Below, one piece after another: positions 12,084 through 34,085 of a DNA stretch of 64,000 nucleotides; the first letter of the stretch is position 1; each line of letters starts with the position of its first letter. The position numbers were made by a program, and so were the translations under genes. The stretch is from the NCBI GenBank assembly GCA_964360335.1, contig CAYHVH010000002.1, positions 804 to 64,803 of the forward strand. The letters run 5' to 3'. The notes under the pieces are model-generated. The model did not search any database and was not told the DNA's origin. It worked only from the letters and a program-made list of their open reading frames with translations. The stretch comes from an uncultured Candidatus Saccharibacteria bacterium (GTDB taxonomy: Bacteria > Patescibacteriota > Doudnabacteria > UBA920 > 2-01-FULL-46-14).

Positions 12084-12440
12084 ATGTCTCACAAGTTCAG
12101 GTTTTGGCTTATATTTGTCTTTAGCGCGGTCTCGTTTTTTACGCCATTGGCGGTTGAAGAACGAGTGGGGTTGGGGCTGGATAAAGTTGTGCATGCATTT
12201 TTATTTTTCTTGCTGGTGTACTTCGCGTTCCAGGCCTACCCGGAGAGAAAAGTCTTGTCGGTAATTCTGCTGTTGCTTTATACCGTTGCTACCGAATTTA
12301 TTCAGGAGAGCTATATTCCGCATCGGAGTTTTGATGTGTATGATATTGTCGCTGATACCGCGGGAATTATTGCAGGTGCTATTTATACACTCACTAAGAG
12401 GGAGAGATCCTTCGTCCCGCCGTGGCGGGACGAAGGATGA
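12084..12440 (+). CDS. VanZ-like family membrane protein
   Basis: 118 aa. Hydrophobic segments plus HRSFDVYDIVADTAGIIAG, typical of VanZ-like proteins. Confidence 0.65.
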   Translation: MSHKFRFWLIFVFSAVSFFTPLAVEERVGLGLDKVVHAFLFFLLVYFAFQAYPERKVLSVILLLLYTVATEFIQESYIPHRSFDVYDIVADTAGIIAGAIYTLTKRERSFVPPWRDEG

Positions 12441-12450
12441 CAAACAGGGC

Positions 12451-28051: not shown

Positions 28052-28651
28052 GTGCTGCTTTCCGACAAAGACATCAAAGCGAAACTTGCAAACGGCGAGA
28101 TTAAAATTGAACCCTTGCCGGATTTGGATATAGCCCTGGGCCCAATTTCGATTGACTTGCGGCTGGGGCACCAATTTTTGGTCTACAAACGGACCGAGCA
28201 GCCCTTTATCGATGTCAAAAAACCGGAAACTTTCGAGAATTTGACCACGCTCCTGAGCAAAAACGAGGCGGAGTCGTTTACCATTCACCCCGGGGAGTTT
28301 GTTCTCGCCGGTACTCTGGAATATGTGGAGATTCCCAATAACCTGGCCGGCCGTCTGGAAGGCCGCTCCAGCCTCGGCCGTCTGGGGATTATCATCCACT
28401 CGACCGCCGGGAAGTTTGACCCGGGCTGGAAAGGCCGGCTGGTTTTGGAAATCAGCAATATCGGCCTTGTTCCGGTCCGGCTTTACCCGGAGATGCGGGT
28501 CTGCCAGCTGCTGTTTGAGGAGTTAAGCTCGGAAACTTCCCAGCCCTATACGGCGCGAAAAACCTCGAAATACAAATTCCAGGGTCAGCCGGTCGGCAGC
28601 CGGATCGTGGCCGAGGAGGAAGAATTGCAAAATAAAGGGAAACTGCTGTGA
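28052..28651 (+). CDS. dcd: dCTP deaminase
   Basis: (M)LLSDKDIKAKLANGEIKIEP...GRSSLGRLGIIIHSTAGKFDPGWKGRLVLEISN is canonical Dcd. GTG start at 28052 gives the typical MxLSDxDI N-terminus. The track uses TTG at 27995, which would overlap the terminator T-run. Confidence 0.8.
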   Translation: MLLSDKDIKAKLANGEIKIEPLPDLDIALGPISIDLRLGHQFLVYKRTEQPFIDVKKPETFENLTTLLSKNEAESFTIHPGEFVLAGTLEYVEIPNNLAGRLEGRSSLGRLGIIIHSTAGKFDPGWKGRLVLEISNIGLVPVRLYPEMRVCQLLFEELSSETSQPYTARKTSKYKFQGQPVGSRIVAEEEELQNKGKLL

Positions 28652-29073
28652 AGGTTAAAATCAAGCGGCTCGATAAAAGTTTACCCTTGCCGGACTATCA
28701 CACAAAGGGAGCAGTGGCGTTTGATATTTATTCGCGCGTTGACGAAATCATCGGGCCACACGGCAGAAAAATCGTTCCCTCGAACCTAATCATTGAGGTT
28801 CCCAAAGGTTATGTCCTGGTTCTTGCCGCCCGAAGCAGCCTGTCTAAAAAGGGGCTGAGGCTCAGTAATGGCATCGGAATCATTGACCAAGATTATCACG
28901 GACCTCAAGATGAAATCAGTATTCTTTTGAATAACTTTACGGACCAATCGGTTGAGGTAAAAAAAGGCGAAAGGATTGCGCAAGGATTCATCATTCCTGT
29001 GGAAAAGGCGGATTGGGAAGAGGTTCCGGAAATAAAAAAAGAATCAAGAGGCGGATTTGGTTCAACGGGATAA
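28648..29073 (+). CDS. dut: dUTP diphosphatase
   Basis: GTGA overlap with dcd. AFDIYSR..., GLRLSNGIGIIDQDYHGP, RIAQ, SRGGFGSTG are the dUTPase motifs. Confidence 0.9.
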   Translation: MKVKIKRLDKSLPLPDYHTKGAVAFDIYSRVDEIIGPHGRKIVPSNLIIEVPKGYVLVLAARSSLSKKGLRLSNGIGIIDQDYHGPQDEISILLNNFTDQSVEVKKGERIAQGFIIPVEKADWEEVPEIKKESRGGFGSTG

Positions 29074-29159
29074 CTACTTAGCTTCGTCATTGCGAGGAGC
29101 TCTGCGACGAAGCAATCTGCATTGGGATTGCTTCGCTTCACTCGCAATGACAAAACAAT
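29074..29159. repeat. Long-hairpin intergenic element (family R2), copy A
   Basis: ...tcattgcgaggagctctgcgacgaagcaatc tgcattggg attgcttcgcttcactcgcaatgacaaaacaata. The ends tcattgcgag / ctcgcaatga are perfectly complementary and the whole element folds as an ~80-nt hairpin. Confidence 0.7.
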
Positions 29160-29813
29160 ATGAAAGGCAAACTTATCGTCATAGACGGTACTGACGGTTC
29201 GGGCAAAGCTACCCAGACAACCACGCTCATTAAAAATTTAAAAAAGGCAGGATATAGAGTTGCCCGGATTGATTTCCCTCGATATGGGCGAAAATCAGCG
29301 GCCCTAGTTGAAGCTTATCTCAAAGGAGAACTGGGTTCGGCCAGAAAGCTAGGGCCCTATATTCCTTCCCTCTTCTACGCGGTTGATCGGTTTGCTGCAA
29401 GCCACGAAATACGCACTAAACTGCAAAAAGGACAAATCGTAATCGCCAACCGCTATGTCGCGGCTAACCTGGCCCACCAGGGCGGTAAAATCGACGATAA
29501 AAGGGCGAGGATGGCCTATTATGAGTGGGTTTTGAACCTCGAATATGGCTTGATGAAGCTACCTCATCCAGCTTTGAACATTATCCTCTATCTGCCAGCT
29601 GAAGTCGCCTTGGGTCTTGTGGAAAAACGCGGTAACAAAAAAGATATCCACGAAAAAGACCTAGCCCACCTGCGAGCCGCAGAAAAAACTTACCTTGAGA
29701 TTGCGGAAAAGTTCGGCTTTCCTGTAATCAAGTGTTATCAAAATGGCGGGCTCTTGAGTCGGGCAAAAGTCGCAGAGTTAGTTTGGAAAAAAGTTAAGCA
29801 GGTCCTGCGATGA
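29160..29813 (+). CDS. tmk: Thymidylate kinase
   Basis: P-loop [15 protein letters not shown] and a DRF-like motif (VDRFAAS); LID region present. Confidence 0.9.
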
Positions 29814-32351: not shown

Positions 32352-32386
32352 AACATCTCCGAGTTTTGAACATTGATTTTCTGGCT

Positions 32387-33067
32387 ATGATAAAGTTTGA
32401 CCATGTCACTAAATCCTACTCCAACCAAGTAGTTGCCCTGCACGACTTGGATTTTGAAATCCAAAGCGGGGAGTTCATTTCCATTGTGGGACGCTCGGGT
32501 GCCGGAAAAAGCACCCTGCTGCGCTTGATTATCCGAGAAGAATATCCCACGTCTGGCGTTGTCCTTATCGAAGGAACTGACATCGCCGGCATTAGATCGC
32601 AGGATATTCCTTACCTGCGGCGCAAAATCGGCGTCGTCTTTCAAGACATCAAGCTGCTTCCTTCTCGGACAGCGTTTGAAAATGTGTCCTTCGCCATGGA
32701 AGTCGGCGGCGTACCTTGGTCGGAAATTGAAAACGAGGTGCCGGAAATCCTGGCGCTGGTTGGCCTGGCAGAAAAGGCCAGTGCTTTTCCCAGCGAACTT
32801 TCGGGAGGGGAAAAGCAAAGGGTGGCAATCGCTCGGGCCTTGGCCCACAAACCAGCTCTCTTATTGGCGGACGAGCCGACCGGCAATCTCGACGAGATCA
32901 ATGCCATGGAACTCCTGACTGTGCTCAGAAAAATCAACGAGTTCGGCACGACCGTGGTCCTGGCGACCCACGCCAAGGAGCTCGTCGACAAAATGAAGAA
33001 ACGAGTGATTGTTCTGGAACAGGGGGAGATCGTTTCCGACCAGCAACAGGGCAAATATCGCTTATGA
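32387..33067 (+). CDS. ftsE: Cell-division ABC ATPase FtsE
   Basis: MIKFDHVTKSY...GRSGAGKSTLL (Walker A), LSGGEKQRVAIARAL (signature), LLLADEPTGNLD (Walker B). The track start is an upstream TTG. Confidence 0.9.
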   Translation: MIKFDHVTKSYSNQVVALHDLDFEIQSGEFISIVGRSGAGKSTLLRLIIREEYPTSGVVLIEGTDIAGIRSQDIPYLRRKIGVVFQDIKLLPSRTAFENVSFAMEVGGVPWSEIENEVPEILALVGLAEKASAFPSELSGGEKQRVAIARALAHKPALLLADEPTGNLDEINAMELLTVLRKINEFGTTVVLATHAKELVDKMKKRVIVLEQGEIVSDQQQGKYRL

Positions 33068-33170
33068 TTATTAATTTGGTCTTTGCGAGGAGTCCCGTCG
33101 GACGGAACGACGATGCAATCTCAAAGATTGCCGCGCCTCGTCGGACGAGGCTCGCAATGACAAAAAATAA
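33068..33170. repeat. Long-hairpin intergenic element (family R2), copy B
   Basis: ...tctttgcgaggagtcccgtcggacggaacgacgatgcaatc tcaaag attgccgcgcctcgtcggacgaggctcgcaatgacaaaaaataa. It shares the ttgcgaggag start and the ctcgcaatgacaaaa end with copy A; the internal arms differ but remain complementary. Confidence 0.7.
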
Positions 33171-34085
33171 GTGAATTCCGTAACTTTTGGCCGCATCCTG
33201 AATAACGGTTTCCTTAACTATTGGCGGAATTTTTGGCTGTCCGTGGCCGCTACCGCCATTATGGTCATTACCCTGTTTATTATCAGTAGTCTCTTGGTGC
33301 TTAATACCCTTGCGAACGTTTCCCTCGCTTCCATTCAGGAAAAGGTTGACATCGGCGTGTACTTCAAGCTCACAACAACAGAGCAGACTATCAAACAAAT
33401 CGAGCGGCAGTTGGAGCTTTTGGGGGAGGTTAAATCCATTGTCTACATTCCGCCCGTCGTGGCGCGGGAAAAGTTTAAGGAATTGCACAAGGATGAACCG
33501 CTGCTTCTAGAGTCAGTCGAGCAGTTTTCGGACGAAGAAAACCCTTTTCCGGCCTCTTTCGCCATCCGGGTGAGGAGCCTCGCCGATTATCCAACCATTA
33601 TCAATCTATTTCAGGGCGAAAAATTTACGCCCTTTGTCAAAAAGATTACCGACAAGCGCGCCGTGGTCGACCGCCTGAACAGGATCACGACCGGCATCAG
33701 GAAGTTAGGCTTTGGCCTAACCTCGGTCTTTGGGGTCATTACGCTTATTGTGATGTTCAATACTGTCCGTCTCACCATCTATAACCGCAGAGAGGAAATC
33801 GAGATTATGCGGCTAGTCGGCGCCTCGAACTGGTTCATCCGCGGGCCGTTCGTCATCGAAGGGATGCTCTACGGAATAGTGGGGGCGATTCTTACGGCCG
33901 TTTTGCTTTATCCCCTAATTTTCATCCTTACCCCAAAAATTTCCGGTTTTTTGGAGCTGGATCTCCTGACCTCAAATTATCTGGGGCTAAATTTTTGGGC
34001 CCTGTTCCTTCTGCAGTTGGCACTCGGCATCAGCTTGGGGACGATCTCCTCGGTCATCGTCATTCGCCGCTATCTGAGGATTTGA
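33171..34085 (+). CDS. ftsX: Cell-division permease-like protein FtsX
   Basis: Follows ftsE. N-terminal TM, a large extracytoplasmic loop, and three C-terminal TMs (FtsX-like permease topology). GTG start. Confidence 0.8.
   Translation: MNSVTFGRILNNGFLNYWRNFWLSVAATAIMVITLFIISSLLVLNTLANVSLASIQEKVDIGVYFKLTTTEQTIKQIERQLELLGEVKSIVYIPPVVAREKFKELHKDEPLLLESVEQFSDEENPFPASFAIRVRSLADYPTIINLFQGEKFTPFVKKITDKRAVVDRLNRITTGIRKLGFGLTSVFGVITLIVMFNTVRLTIYNRREEIEIMRLVGASNWFIRGPFVIEGMLYGIVGAILTAVLLYPLIFILTPKISGFLELDLLTSNYLGLNFWALFLLQLALGISLGTISSVIVIRRYLRI

Follow-up and report, generated by a model that had tools for sequence, protein, structure and literature searches.

Two operon hairpins of a groundwater Patescibacteria genome as probable gene-less dimers of a CGTC-tagged repeat linked to Ssn-like GIY-YIG nucleases

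Genomes of Neisseria carry a short tagged palindrome, NTS or dRS3 (CGTCATTCCCGCGMAVGCGGGAATCYRG), which together with related repeats, the Ssn-related motifs (SRMs), flanks genes of the Ssn family, whose products are GIY-YIG nucleases of ~94 aa with a single domain (Chenal et al. 2025, PMC11893778). Purified Ssn enzymes bind the hairpin as single-stranded DNA (ssDNA) only, not as double-stranded DNA or RNA, and their cut falls a few nucleotides upstream; this action depends critically on the tag and on the C that follows the palindrome, and binding and cleavage have been shown for the Neisseria and Wolbachia homologues only (PMC11893778). The NTS-ssnA-NTS layout has been likened to an insertion sequence (IS), an IS-like origin being put forward as a hypothesis only (PMC11893778). 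A second described group is the CGTC-tagged superfamily of repetitive extragenic palindromes (REPs), whose tag may also read TGTC or CCTC, whose stems start with AT, whose tails are short and which lie mostly as inverted dimers and mostly downstream of genes (Di Nocera et al. 2013, PMC3733652). It comprises the families CGTC-1 to CGTC-4, with members that include dRS3 and Rickettsia RPE-4 and RPE-6, and no dedicated transposase or associated enzyme was found for it (PMC3733652). Here we analyse two hairpins, copy A and copy B, in operon spacers of a 64,000-nt stretch (the window) of contig CAYHVH010000002.1 from an uncultured Patescibacteria genome (Hainich groundwater metagenome, well H51, 0.1 µm fraction).

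Both hairpins are very likely inverted dimers of a CGTC-tagged REP/SRM subtype without an open reading frame (ORF), comparable to REPINs or to MITEs, miniature transposable elements with inverted repeats. The element is a divergent subtype of the already described CGTC-REP/SRM system and not a new RNA, and the two operon hairpins can now be assigned to the Ssn nuclease/tagged-hairpin system.

Two hairpins and the nuclease gene that shares their arms

Copy A reads C-GTCATTGCGAG-GAGCTCTGCGAC-GAA-GCAATC-TGCATTGG-GATTGC-TTC-GCTTCA-CTCGCAATGAC-A and copy B reads G-GTCTTTGCGAG-...-GCAATC-TCAAA-GATTGC-...-CTCGCAATGAC-A, with an extra small palindrome in each arm of the latter (CCGT-CGG-ACGG and CCTCGT-CGG-ACGAGG). 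The termini of the two are near-identical, GTC(A/T)TTGCGAG...CTCGCAATGAC. The arms are tagged CGTC and TGTC in copy A and GGTC and TGTC in copy B, and GCAAT is followed by C in four of four arms (Table 1).

An initial annotation of this DNA, made from the letters alone, had seen much of this. Both copies do carry the termini that it reported, together with a central gcaatc...gattgc pair and an A-rich 3' flank. Its cattgcgaggag, given for both copies, is actually ctttgcgaggag in copy B, where the 5' end is ctttgcgag and not cattgcgag, one base off in an otherwise accurate description; likewise, the ends that it called each other's reverse complement are exactly so in copy A and differ by one mismatch in copy B. 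The coordinates that it gave, 29074-29159 and 33068-33170, are those of the whole spacers, the elements themselves being shorter. All four flanking genes lie on the + strand and are dut-tmk and ftsE-ftsX, as it had guessed.

The hairpin pattern is far above chance in the window. The terminal 11-mer with ≤1 mismatch matched 4 times against 0.99 expected, GCAATC-N(2-12)-GATTGC 2 times against 0.07 and TTGCGAG-N(30-60)-CTCGCAA once against 0.01. An arm profile (nhmmer) found four arms only in the 64 kb, at E 3e-8 to 3e-3, and neither this profile nor 11-mers with ≤3 mismatches revealed extra copies, degenerate copies or solo arms in the window.

Elsewhere, the same arms enclose a gene. The full-length element is ~380 bp long and consists of a 5' arm, (C/T)GTCATTGCGAG-x-GAAGCAATC, ~15-25 nt, a 291-nt ORF and a 3' arm, GATTGC-x-CTCGCAATGAC(A/G). 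The product of the ORF is a ~96-aa single-domain GIY-YIG nuclease; at one locus (L118) a 97-aa GIY-YIG ORF lies between a 5' arm and a full hairpin. We fetched 83 nuclease loci, 80 metagenomic and 3 viral, the gene being carried by three viral-contig loci only. A 5' arm was found ≤160 nt upstream of the gene in 73 of the 83 loci and a 3' arm ≤220 nt downstream in 73. The layout is a clean arm-ORF-arm in 52 of the 83, with a median length of 381 bp, the stop codon abutting GATTGC and the start lying 15-25 nt past GCAATC. Close to the gene, arms number 8.6 per kb compared to 0.47 per kb further off, an 18-fold difference.

The nuclease has at least 8000 homologues of 87-118 aa with PF01541 as the sole domain. 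Identity is 62-75 % across phyla, which comprise Patescibacteria, Cyanobacteria, Proteobacteria, Elusimicrobia and Cloacimonetes. No variation is seen at the catalytic Y, G, R, H, E and N columns of the alignment. NCBIfam contains no model for the nuclease, and a profile search of PDB returned only the UPF0213 protein BH0048 (E 5e-6). The link to the Neisseria enzyme comes from a full-length element (L141) that originates from the same Hainich H51 sample as the window contig, on a contig of different coverage. Its protein aligns to a 94-aa ORF of N. gonorrhoeae with 43 % identity over 94 aa (E 5e-27). That ORF, located by tblastn in annotated records, is surrounded by clustered repeats, at least 15 of which conform to the NTS consensus, and we take it to be gonococcal ssnA. 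The homology of the nested proteins to Neisseria SsnA (CDD cd10448) rests on this 43 % identity alignment.

The arms of the window copies are of the types found around the gene. The 5' arm of copy A is the 'long' type that in full-length elements is found upstream of the nuclease ORF (compare L162, L153 and L165). Copy B has as its 5' arm GTCTTTGCGAG, a variant that recurs and is also upstream of nuclease ORFs in L187 and L192, and its 3' arm is of the type seen in the 3' arms of the full-length elements L174, L179 and L187. At the position of the ORF, copies A and B have 8 nt and 5 nt only, with both arms kept; both are oriented so that the lost ORF would be on the + strand. From the arm types shared with full-length elements, we therefore conclude that the window copies are the same element minus the ORF. 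Of the two origins suggested in the initial annotation, a MITE-like element and a structured RNA, the first is the one that agrees with these data, as an ORF-less form of the ~380-bp GIY-YIG cassette with the same arms that is absent from the orthologous junctions of a syntenic relative.

Alternatively, the hairpin could be a homing or target site and the GIY-YIG ORF the mobile part that inserts into loops, in which case the window copies would be unoccupied sites and not deletion derivatives, and the palindromes would pre-exist and spread or persist by another route. The ORF does sit exactly in the loop, with the precise borders described above, short hairpins far outnumber gene-bearing ones near any given locus, and GIY-YIG domains are common in homing endonucleases. 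However, the characterised Ssn enzymes cut the outer flank upstream of the tag, not the loop (PMC11893778), and the arm subtypes move together with the gene, full-length and short forms having the same types of arm. A homing site also leaves unexplained both the arrival of hairpins at non-homologous intergenic sites in many phyla and their absence from orthologous junctions, and we consider it an unlikely explanation.

Several side observations were made on the gene-bearing elements. A TATAAT or TACAAT box is present only ~7-12 nt before the nuclease ATG in full-length elements (L141, 1428-1812, and other clean-layout loci); the transcript for the nuclease may start inside the element and have a very short leader or none. 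The N-terminal peptides SLRVIRSNL and HCEEERRSNL of the database proteins P0004 and P0035 are translated 5' arms, as the nuclease gene is sometimes called in databases from a start that is too far upstream. The palindromes cause false ORFs and false N-terminal extensions, of which the second peptide is an example, and this artefact of annotation is systematic. On a plasmid of Planktothrix agardhii (L217; NZ_LR882964.1, 18250-19713) tandem GTCATTCTGAG-type arms flank an ssn-like gene whose neighbours are defence genes, with MmeI-type restriction-modification on one side and the DISARM helicase gene drmA on the other.

Folding, operon context and insertion

Both copies fold into the hairpins that had been predicted. 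RNA folding gave -35.3 kcal/mol for copy A and -40.1 kcal/mol for copy B (z -5.9 and -4.1; 0 of 200 shuffles equally stable), and DNA folding gave -21.9 and -26.8 kcal/mol (z -5.8 and -5.1). The reverse strand of both copies folds equally well or better, which argues for a DNA palindrome without strand specificity. No Rfam match reached the gathering threshold in the window or in 12 related loci. At relaxed E-values only, a SAH riboswitch and mir-1000 came up as sub-threshold chance matches and were discarded; a terminator was likewise rejected, there being no T-run after the hairpin on either strand.

The folds bear on the proposal that the hairpins are selected cis-acting operon RNAs, acting at dut-tmk and ftsE-ftsX as mRNA stabilisers, processing sites or tuners of translation, with the likeness to mobile repeats a case of exaptation. 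Both copies lie between co-directional genes, 11-12 nt past a stop and 8-9 nt before a start, in the same orientation relative to the genes, and as RNA they fold at -35 and -40 kcal/mol. Work cited in the CGTC-REP study indicates that REPs elsewhere can stabilise upstream mRNA (PMC3733652). An unrelated 70-nt AT-rich palindrome also occupies the ftsE-ftsX spacer, the junction of copy B, in another Patescibacteria genome (L212, 10516-10585; Doudnabacteria GCA_016182875.1), and this junction seems to tolerate hairpin insertions repeatedly. The absence of an Rfam match and the folding of the reverse strand speak against this proposal, syntenic relatives have no spacer element at these junctions, and across genomes the hairpins occur in both orientations and in convergent and divergent contexts; the shared orientation of two copies is statistically meaningless. 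The characterised protein partner binds ssDNA, not RNA (PMC11893778). We regard selected operon RNAs as quite improbable, slightly more so than the homing site; nothing supports a dedicated RNA function for the hairpins, and the structured RNA of the initial annotation was not retained.

The operon spacers of relatives, which that annotation had proposed to compare, carry no arms. One locus (L208), which shares the gene order of the window from secE to pyrG, has a dut-tmk gap of 12 nt and overlapping ftsE and ftsX (ATGA); in another (L210) the ftsE-ftsX gap is 23 nt. None of the relatives examined, L208 and L210 among them, has arms at the orthologous junctions. In the window, the dUTPase-tmk spacer is 86 nt and the ftsE-ftsX spacer 103 nt, and subtracting the hairpins leaves 20 nt each; the GTG start of ftsX lines up with the ATG found in orthologues. 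From this comparison of sequences, the simplest reading of both window copies is that they are insertions. As the relatives are distant, a gain in the window lineage is parsimonious and not proven. The closest Tmk relatives, at ~60 % identity, are Candidatus Doudnabacteria and other Patescibacteria. The hairpin of copy A also occurs in three Hainich assemblies that are independent of each other and in one Logan contig, and copy B in L001 (10912-10994).

Table 1. Positions of the two hairpins, their parts and the flanking genes in the 64,000-nt window
Feature	Positions	Strand	Description	nhmmer E
Copy A, complete element	29085-29152		Inverted dimer of two SRM-like arms, C-GTCATTGCGAG...CTCGCAATGAC-A	
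Copy A 5' arm	29085-29120	+	CGTC tag, ATTGC, GAG, insert GAGC-TCT-GCGAC, GAA, GCAAT, tail CTGC	3.3e-8
Copy A GTCATTGCGAG	29086-29096		Exact reverse complement of CTCGCAATGAC	
Copy A inner pair	29112-29131		GCAATC/GATTGC	
Copy A loop	29118-29125		TGCATTGG; site occupied by the 291-nt GIY-YIG ORF in full-length elements	
Copy A 3' arm	29123-29152	-	Minus-strand reading: TGTCATTGCGAG TGAAGC GAA GCAAT CCCA	6.2e-8
Copy A CTCGCAATGAC	29141-29151			
Copy B, complete element	33078-33162		G-GTCTTTGCGAG...CTCGCAATGAC-A	
Copy B 5' arm	33078-33123	+	Side hairpin TCCCGTCGGACGGA at 33093-33106	0.0032
Copy B GTCTTTGCGAG	33079-33089		One mismatch to the reverse complement of CTCGCAATGAC	
Copy B inner pair	33115-33131		GCAATC/GATTGC	
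Copy B 3' arm	33123-33162	-	Side hairpin CCTCGTCGGACGAGG at 33136-33150	5.2e-5
Copy B CTCGCAATGAC	33151-33161			
dUTPase gene	28648-29073	+	Stop codon precedes the CGTC tag of copy A by 11 nt and GTCATTGCGAG by 12 nt	
Thymidylate kinase gene (tmk)	29160-29813	+	Start 7 nt past the end of copy A (29152), 8 nt past CTCGCAATGAC	
ftsE-like ABC ATPase gene	32366-33067	+	Stop 10 nt before the start of copy B (33078), 11 nt before GTCTTTGCGAG	
ftsX gene	33171-34085	+	GTG start 8 nt past the end of copy B (33162), 9 nt past CTCGCAATGAC	

Another palindrome is found at 12404-12442 on the - strand of the window. It reads TGTCATCCTTCGTCCCGCC-AC-GGCGGGACGAAGGATCTCT, a palindrome of 15 bp without mismatch, tagged TGTCAT and ending in the tail ATC, and it overlaps the stop codon of the ORF 12084-12440. 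By its looks this is a lone REP of the CGTC type that belongs to another subtype, and the window, 215 fetched loci and viral contigs yielded no second copy of it.

Distribution of the family and a possible mode of spread

An exact-pattern scan of one genome per species with GTCATTGCGAG-N(30-60)-CTCGCAATGAC returned at least 120 stretches. Hosts among the matches listed include Bradyrhizobium, sphingomonads, Rhodospirillales, Rickettsiales and other Alpha-, Gamma-, Beta- and Deltaproteobacteria, as well as Bacteroidota, Chloroflexota, Cyanobacteria, Planctomycetota, Berkelbacteria and Saccharibacteria. The termini thus recur in many phyla and are not private to the genome of the window. A search of the full-text literature for the arm sequence gave primer matches only.

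The 123 distinct hairpins follow one plan: an 11-bp outer stem, an inner 6-mer, an inner stem and a variable loop of 8-34 nt. The inner 6-mer is CGNAGC opposite GCTNCG, with N complementary in 18 of 23 symmetric copies, and the inner stem is G(A/T/C)(A/G)GCAATC opposite GATTGC.... The hairpins fall into three classes, one symmetric and two that are mirror images of each other with at least 6 extra nt in one arm; these extra nt often form a GC-loop-GC mini-hairpin or else a longer side hairpin. The element is preceded by C or T and followed by G or A, resulting in a CGTC or TGTC tag; position -1 is C or T in ~94 % of copies. The tail AAT-CCAG is present in 52 of the 123 hairpins, and we found no flank motif beyond the -1 C/T and the +1 G/A. 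Across genomes, the hairpins stand in either orientation between co-directional, convergent and divergent genes.

The compensatory divergence inside the two window copies that the initial annotation described is real, but its cause is that the arms are separate repeat units and not a constraint on pairing. Many dimers join arm types that are mismatched at the variable triplet (GTG or GCG opposite TTC 14 times, GAA opposite CAC or CGC 8 times), which argues for separate units and not for a co-evolving helix.

Some further features of the arms were noted. Single half-arms form tandem arrays in four loci (L105, 1800-2060, also L159, L178 and L184), of which the first comprises seven copies of ~36 nt each, GGGATTGCTTCGCTTCGCTCGCAATGACA plus a short spacer; because such arrays occur, arms are able to amplify alone and not only as inverted dimers. 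In three cases a dimer lies inside the loop of a larger unrelated inverted repeat (L035, 3012-3138; L077, 1344-1474; L111, 1489-1614), for example GGCTGTTACGTTCT...[hairpin]...AGAACGTAACAGCC, which suggests that dimers inserted into pre-existing palindromes or terminators. Of the asymmetric dimers between co-directional genes (L005-L124), 26 have their long arm on the template strand and 10 on the coding strand, a tentative bias derived from crude ORF calls; both window copies are in the minority orientation.

Based on the biochemistry of the described enzymes (PMC11893778), the following mode of spread can be proposed. When the DNA is single-stranded, for example during replication, transformation or repair, the Ssn nuclease would bind one arm as a tagged hairpin, and its nick would fall a few nucleotides upstream of the tag. 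Because the inverted arms give each strand one sense arm at its 5' side, nicks would be made at both outer borders. This cleavage would drive the spread of the cassette and of gene-less copies, the nuclease acting on copies A and B being presumably supplied in trans, from elsewhere in the genome or from the community. The copies would have landed in short operon spacers and been tolerated there, and as a by-product they would be transcribed as very stable mRNA hairpins; that both are probably transcribed within their operons, as the initial annotation supposed, is a reasonable assumption. It is possible that, folded as modelled, the hairpins affect mRNA stability or the translation of tmk or ftsX.

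A number of observations weigh against assigning the window hairpins to a tagged, Ssn-linked repeat. The published SRM pattern, HGTCWYN(0-2)YYVSBRHN(0-5)WNVSBRGN(0-2)RNCYNB, has zero matches in the window; the four arms and the family consensus fail it, and the canonical NTS matches. This pattern is a search heuristic derived from 29 genomes and not a functional definition (PMC11893778). A single consensus arm folds as DNA at -2.7 kcal/mol, no better than shuffles, compared to -9 kcal/mol for the canonical NTS. Because the lone arm folds weakly, single-arm hairpin recognition of this subtype is unproven. GCGAAGC-type GNA mini-hairpins are unusually stable in DNA, and nearest-neighbour predictions may understate the stability of the single arm. 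No ssn gene was found in the 64-kb window by tblastn, and among 120 genome loci selected for the short hairpin only one has the gene at a distance of ≤8 kb, so that a nuclease gene is not near most of the short copies. Target-site duplications were not seen and, to our knowledge, transposition or excision of an Ssn cassette has been demonstrated neither here nor in the literature. Finally, the relatives with empty sites are distant (~60 % Tmk identity), and loss in those lineages is possible.

We hypothesize, tentatively and with more doubt than confidence, that the ~380-bp arm-ssn-arm cassette is an autonomous mobile element with a new mechanism, a GIY-YIG ssDNA nickase acting on tagged hairpin ends, and that the 66-83-nt dimers are its MITEs. 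If true, the near-identical 11-nt termini from Patescibacteria to Bradyrhizobium would reflect ongoing inter-phylum transfer, and the ATTGCGAG subtype would be among the most widespread lineages of the cassette. The original description did not settle whether the repeats are mobilised by their own Ssn nucleases (PMC11893778), and the arm-ORF-arm cassette and its ORF-less derivatives provide defined substrates for asking this question. The very widespread arm subtype (ATTGCGAG...GCAAT) escapes the published SRM pattern, and censuses of Ssn repeats probably undercount it for this reason.

Comparison with described repeat systems

The strict REPINs, doublets of REPs mobilised by a RAYT (an IS200/IS605-like Y1 tyrosine transposase; Bertels and Rainey 2011, PMC3116915), share with the element the arrangement of two inverted, partly self-complementary units in one long intergenic hairpin. 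In both systems a short palindromic unit is doubled in inverted orientation, the doublet is non-autonomous, and there is a link to a nuclease or transposase gene, present in single copy, that is flanked by the same units; by analogy both may act through ssDNA hairpins. However, the tag here is CGTC or TGTC and not GTAG, CGTC REPs have no associated RAYT (PMC3733652), and the gene between the arms encodes a GIY-YIG nuclease in 52-73 of the 83 loci and not an HUH Y1 transposase. REPIN-RAYT pairs are mostly lineage-specific and vertically inherited, whereas the arm described here is near-identical across phyla. That the window copies are strict REPINs is hardly credible.

The likeness to the CGTC-tagged REPs is closer. 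The element has the terminal CGTC tag (also TGTC), a short tail and a stem whose first pairs are A-T and T-A; its inverted dimers can fold as one long hairpin, heterodimers of unit types are common, and most copies are found downstream of genes, where the ORFs on either side are co-directional or convergent. It differs from CGTC-1 to CGTC-4 in having a 5-bp stem and a 12-25-nt loop where these have an 8-9-bp stem and a 4-5-nt loop, and in that the tags of its dimers face outward. As far as the text descriptions of these families allow, the element belongs to the tagged superfamily and lies outside the four described CGTC families.

The closest counterpart is the SRM/Ssn system. The NTS, CGTC-ATT[CCCGCGMAVGCGGG]AAT-CYRG, can be set beside the consensus arm of the present family, CGTC-ATT[GCGAGCGAAGCGAAGC]AAT-CCAG. 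In both, a ~94-96-aa single-domain GIY-YIG gene is flanked on both sides by inverted repeats, here in 73 of 83 loci on each side and cleanly in 52, and numerous gene-less copies are found in intergenic DNA. The (H)GTC tag and the C after the palindrome are present as well, except that the GGTC of the 5' arm of copy B has a G outside H. The arm here has a 5-bp stem (ATTGC/GCAAT) and a loop of at least 12 nt, often with a GC-NNN-GC mini-hairpin or side hairpin, compared to the 8-bp stem and 4-nt loop of the NTS, and the stable structure is the two-arm dimer (-22 and -27 kcal/mol) and not the single arm. Unlike the described repeats, the ATTGCGAG-type subtype is known here from sequence alone, and it is found in Patescibacteria with copies in housekeeping operons.

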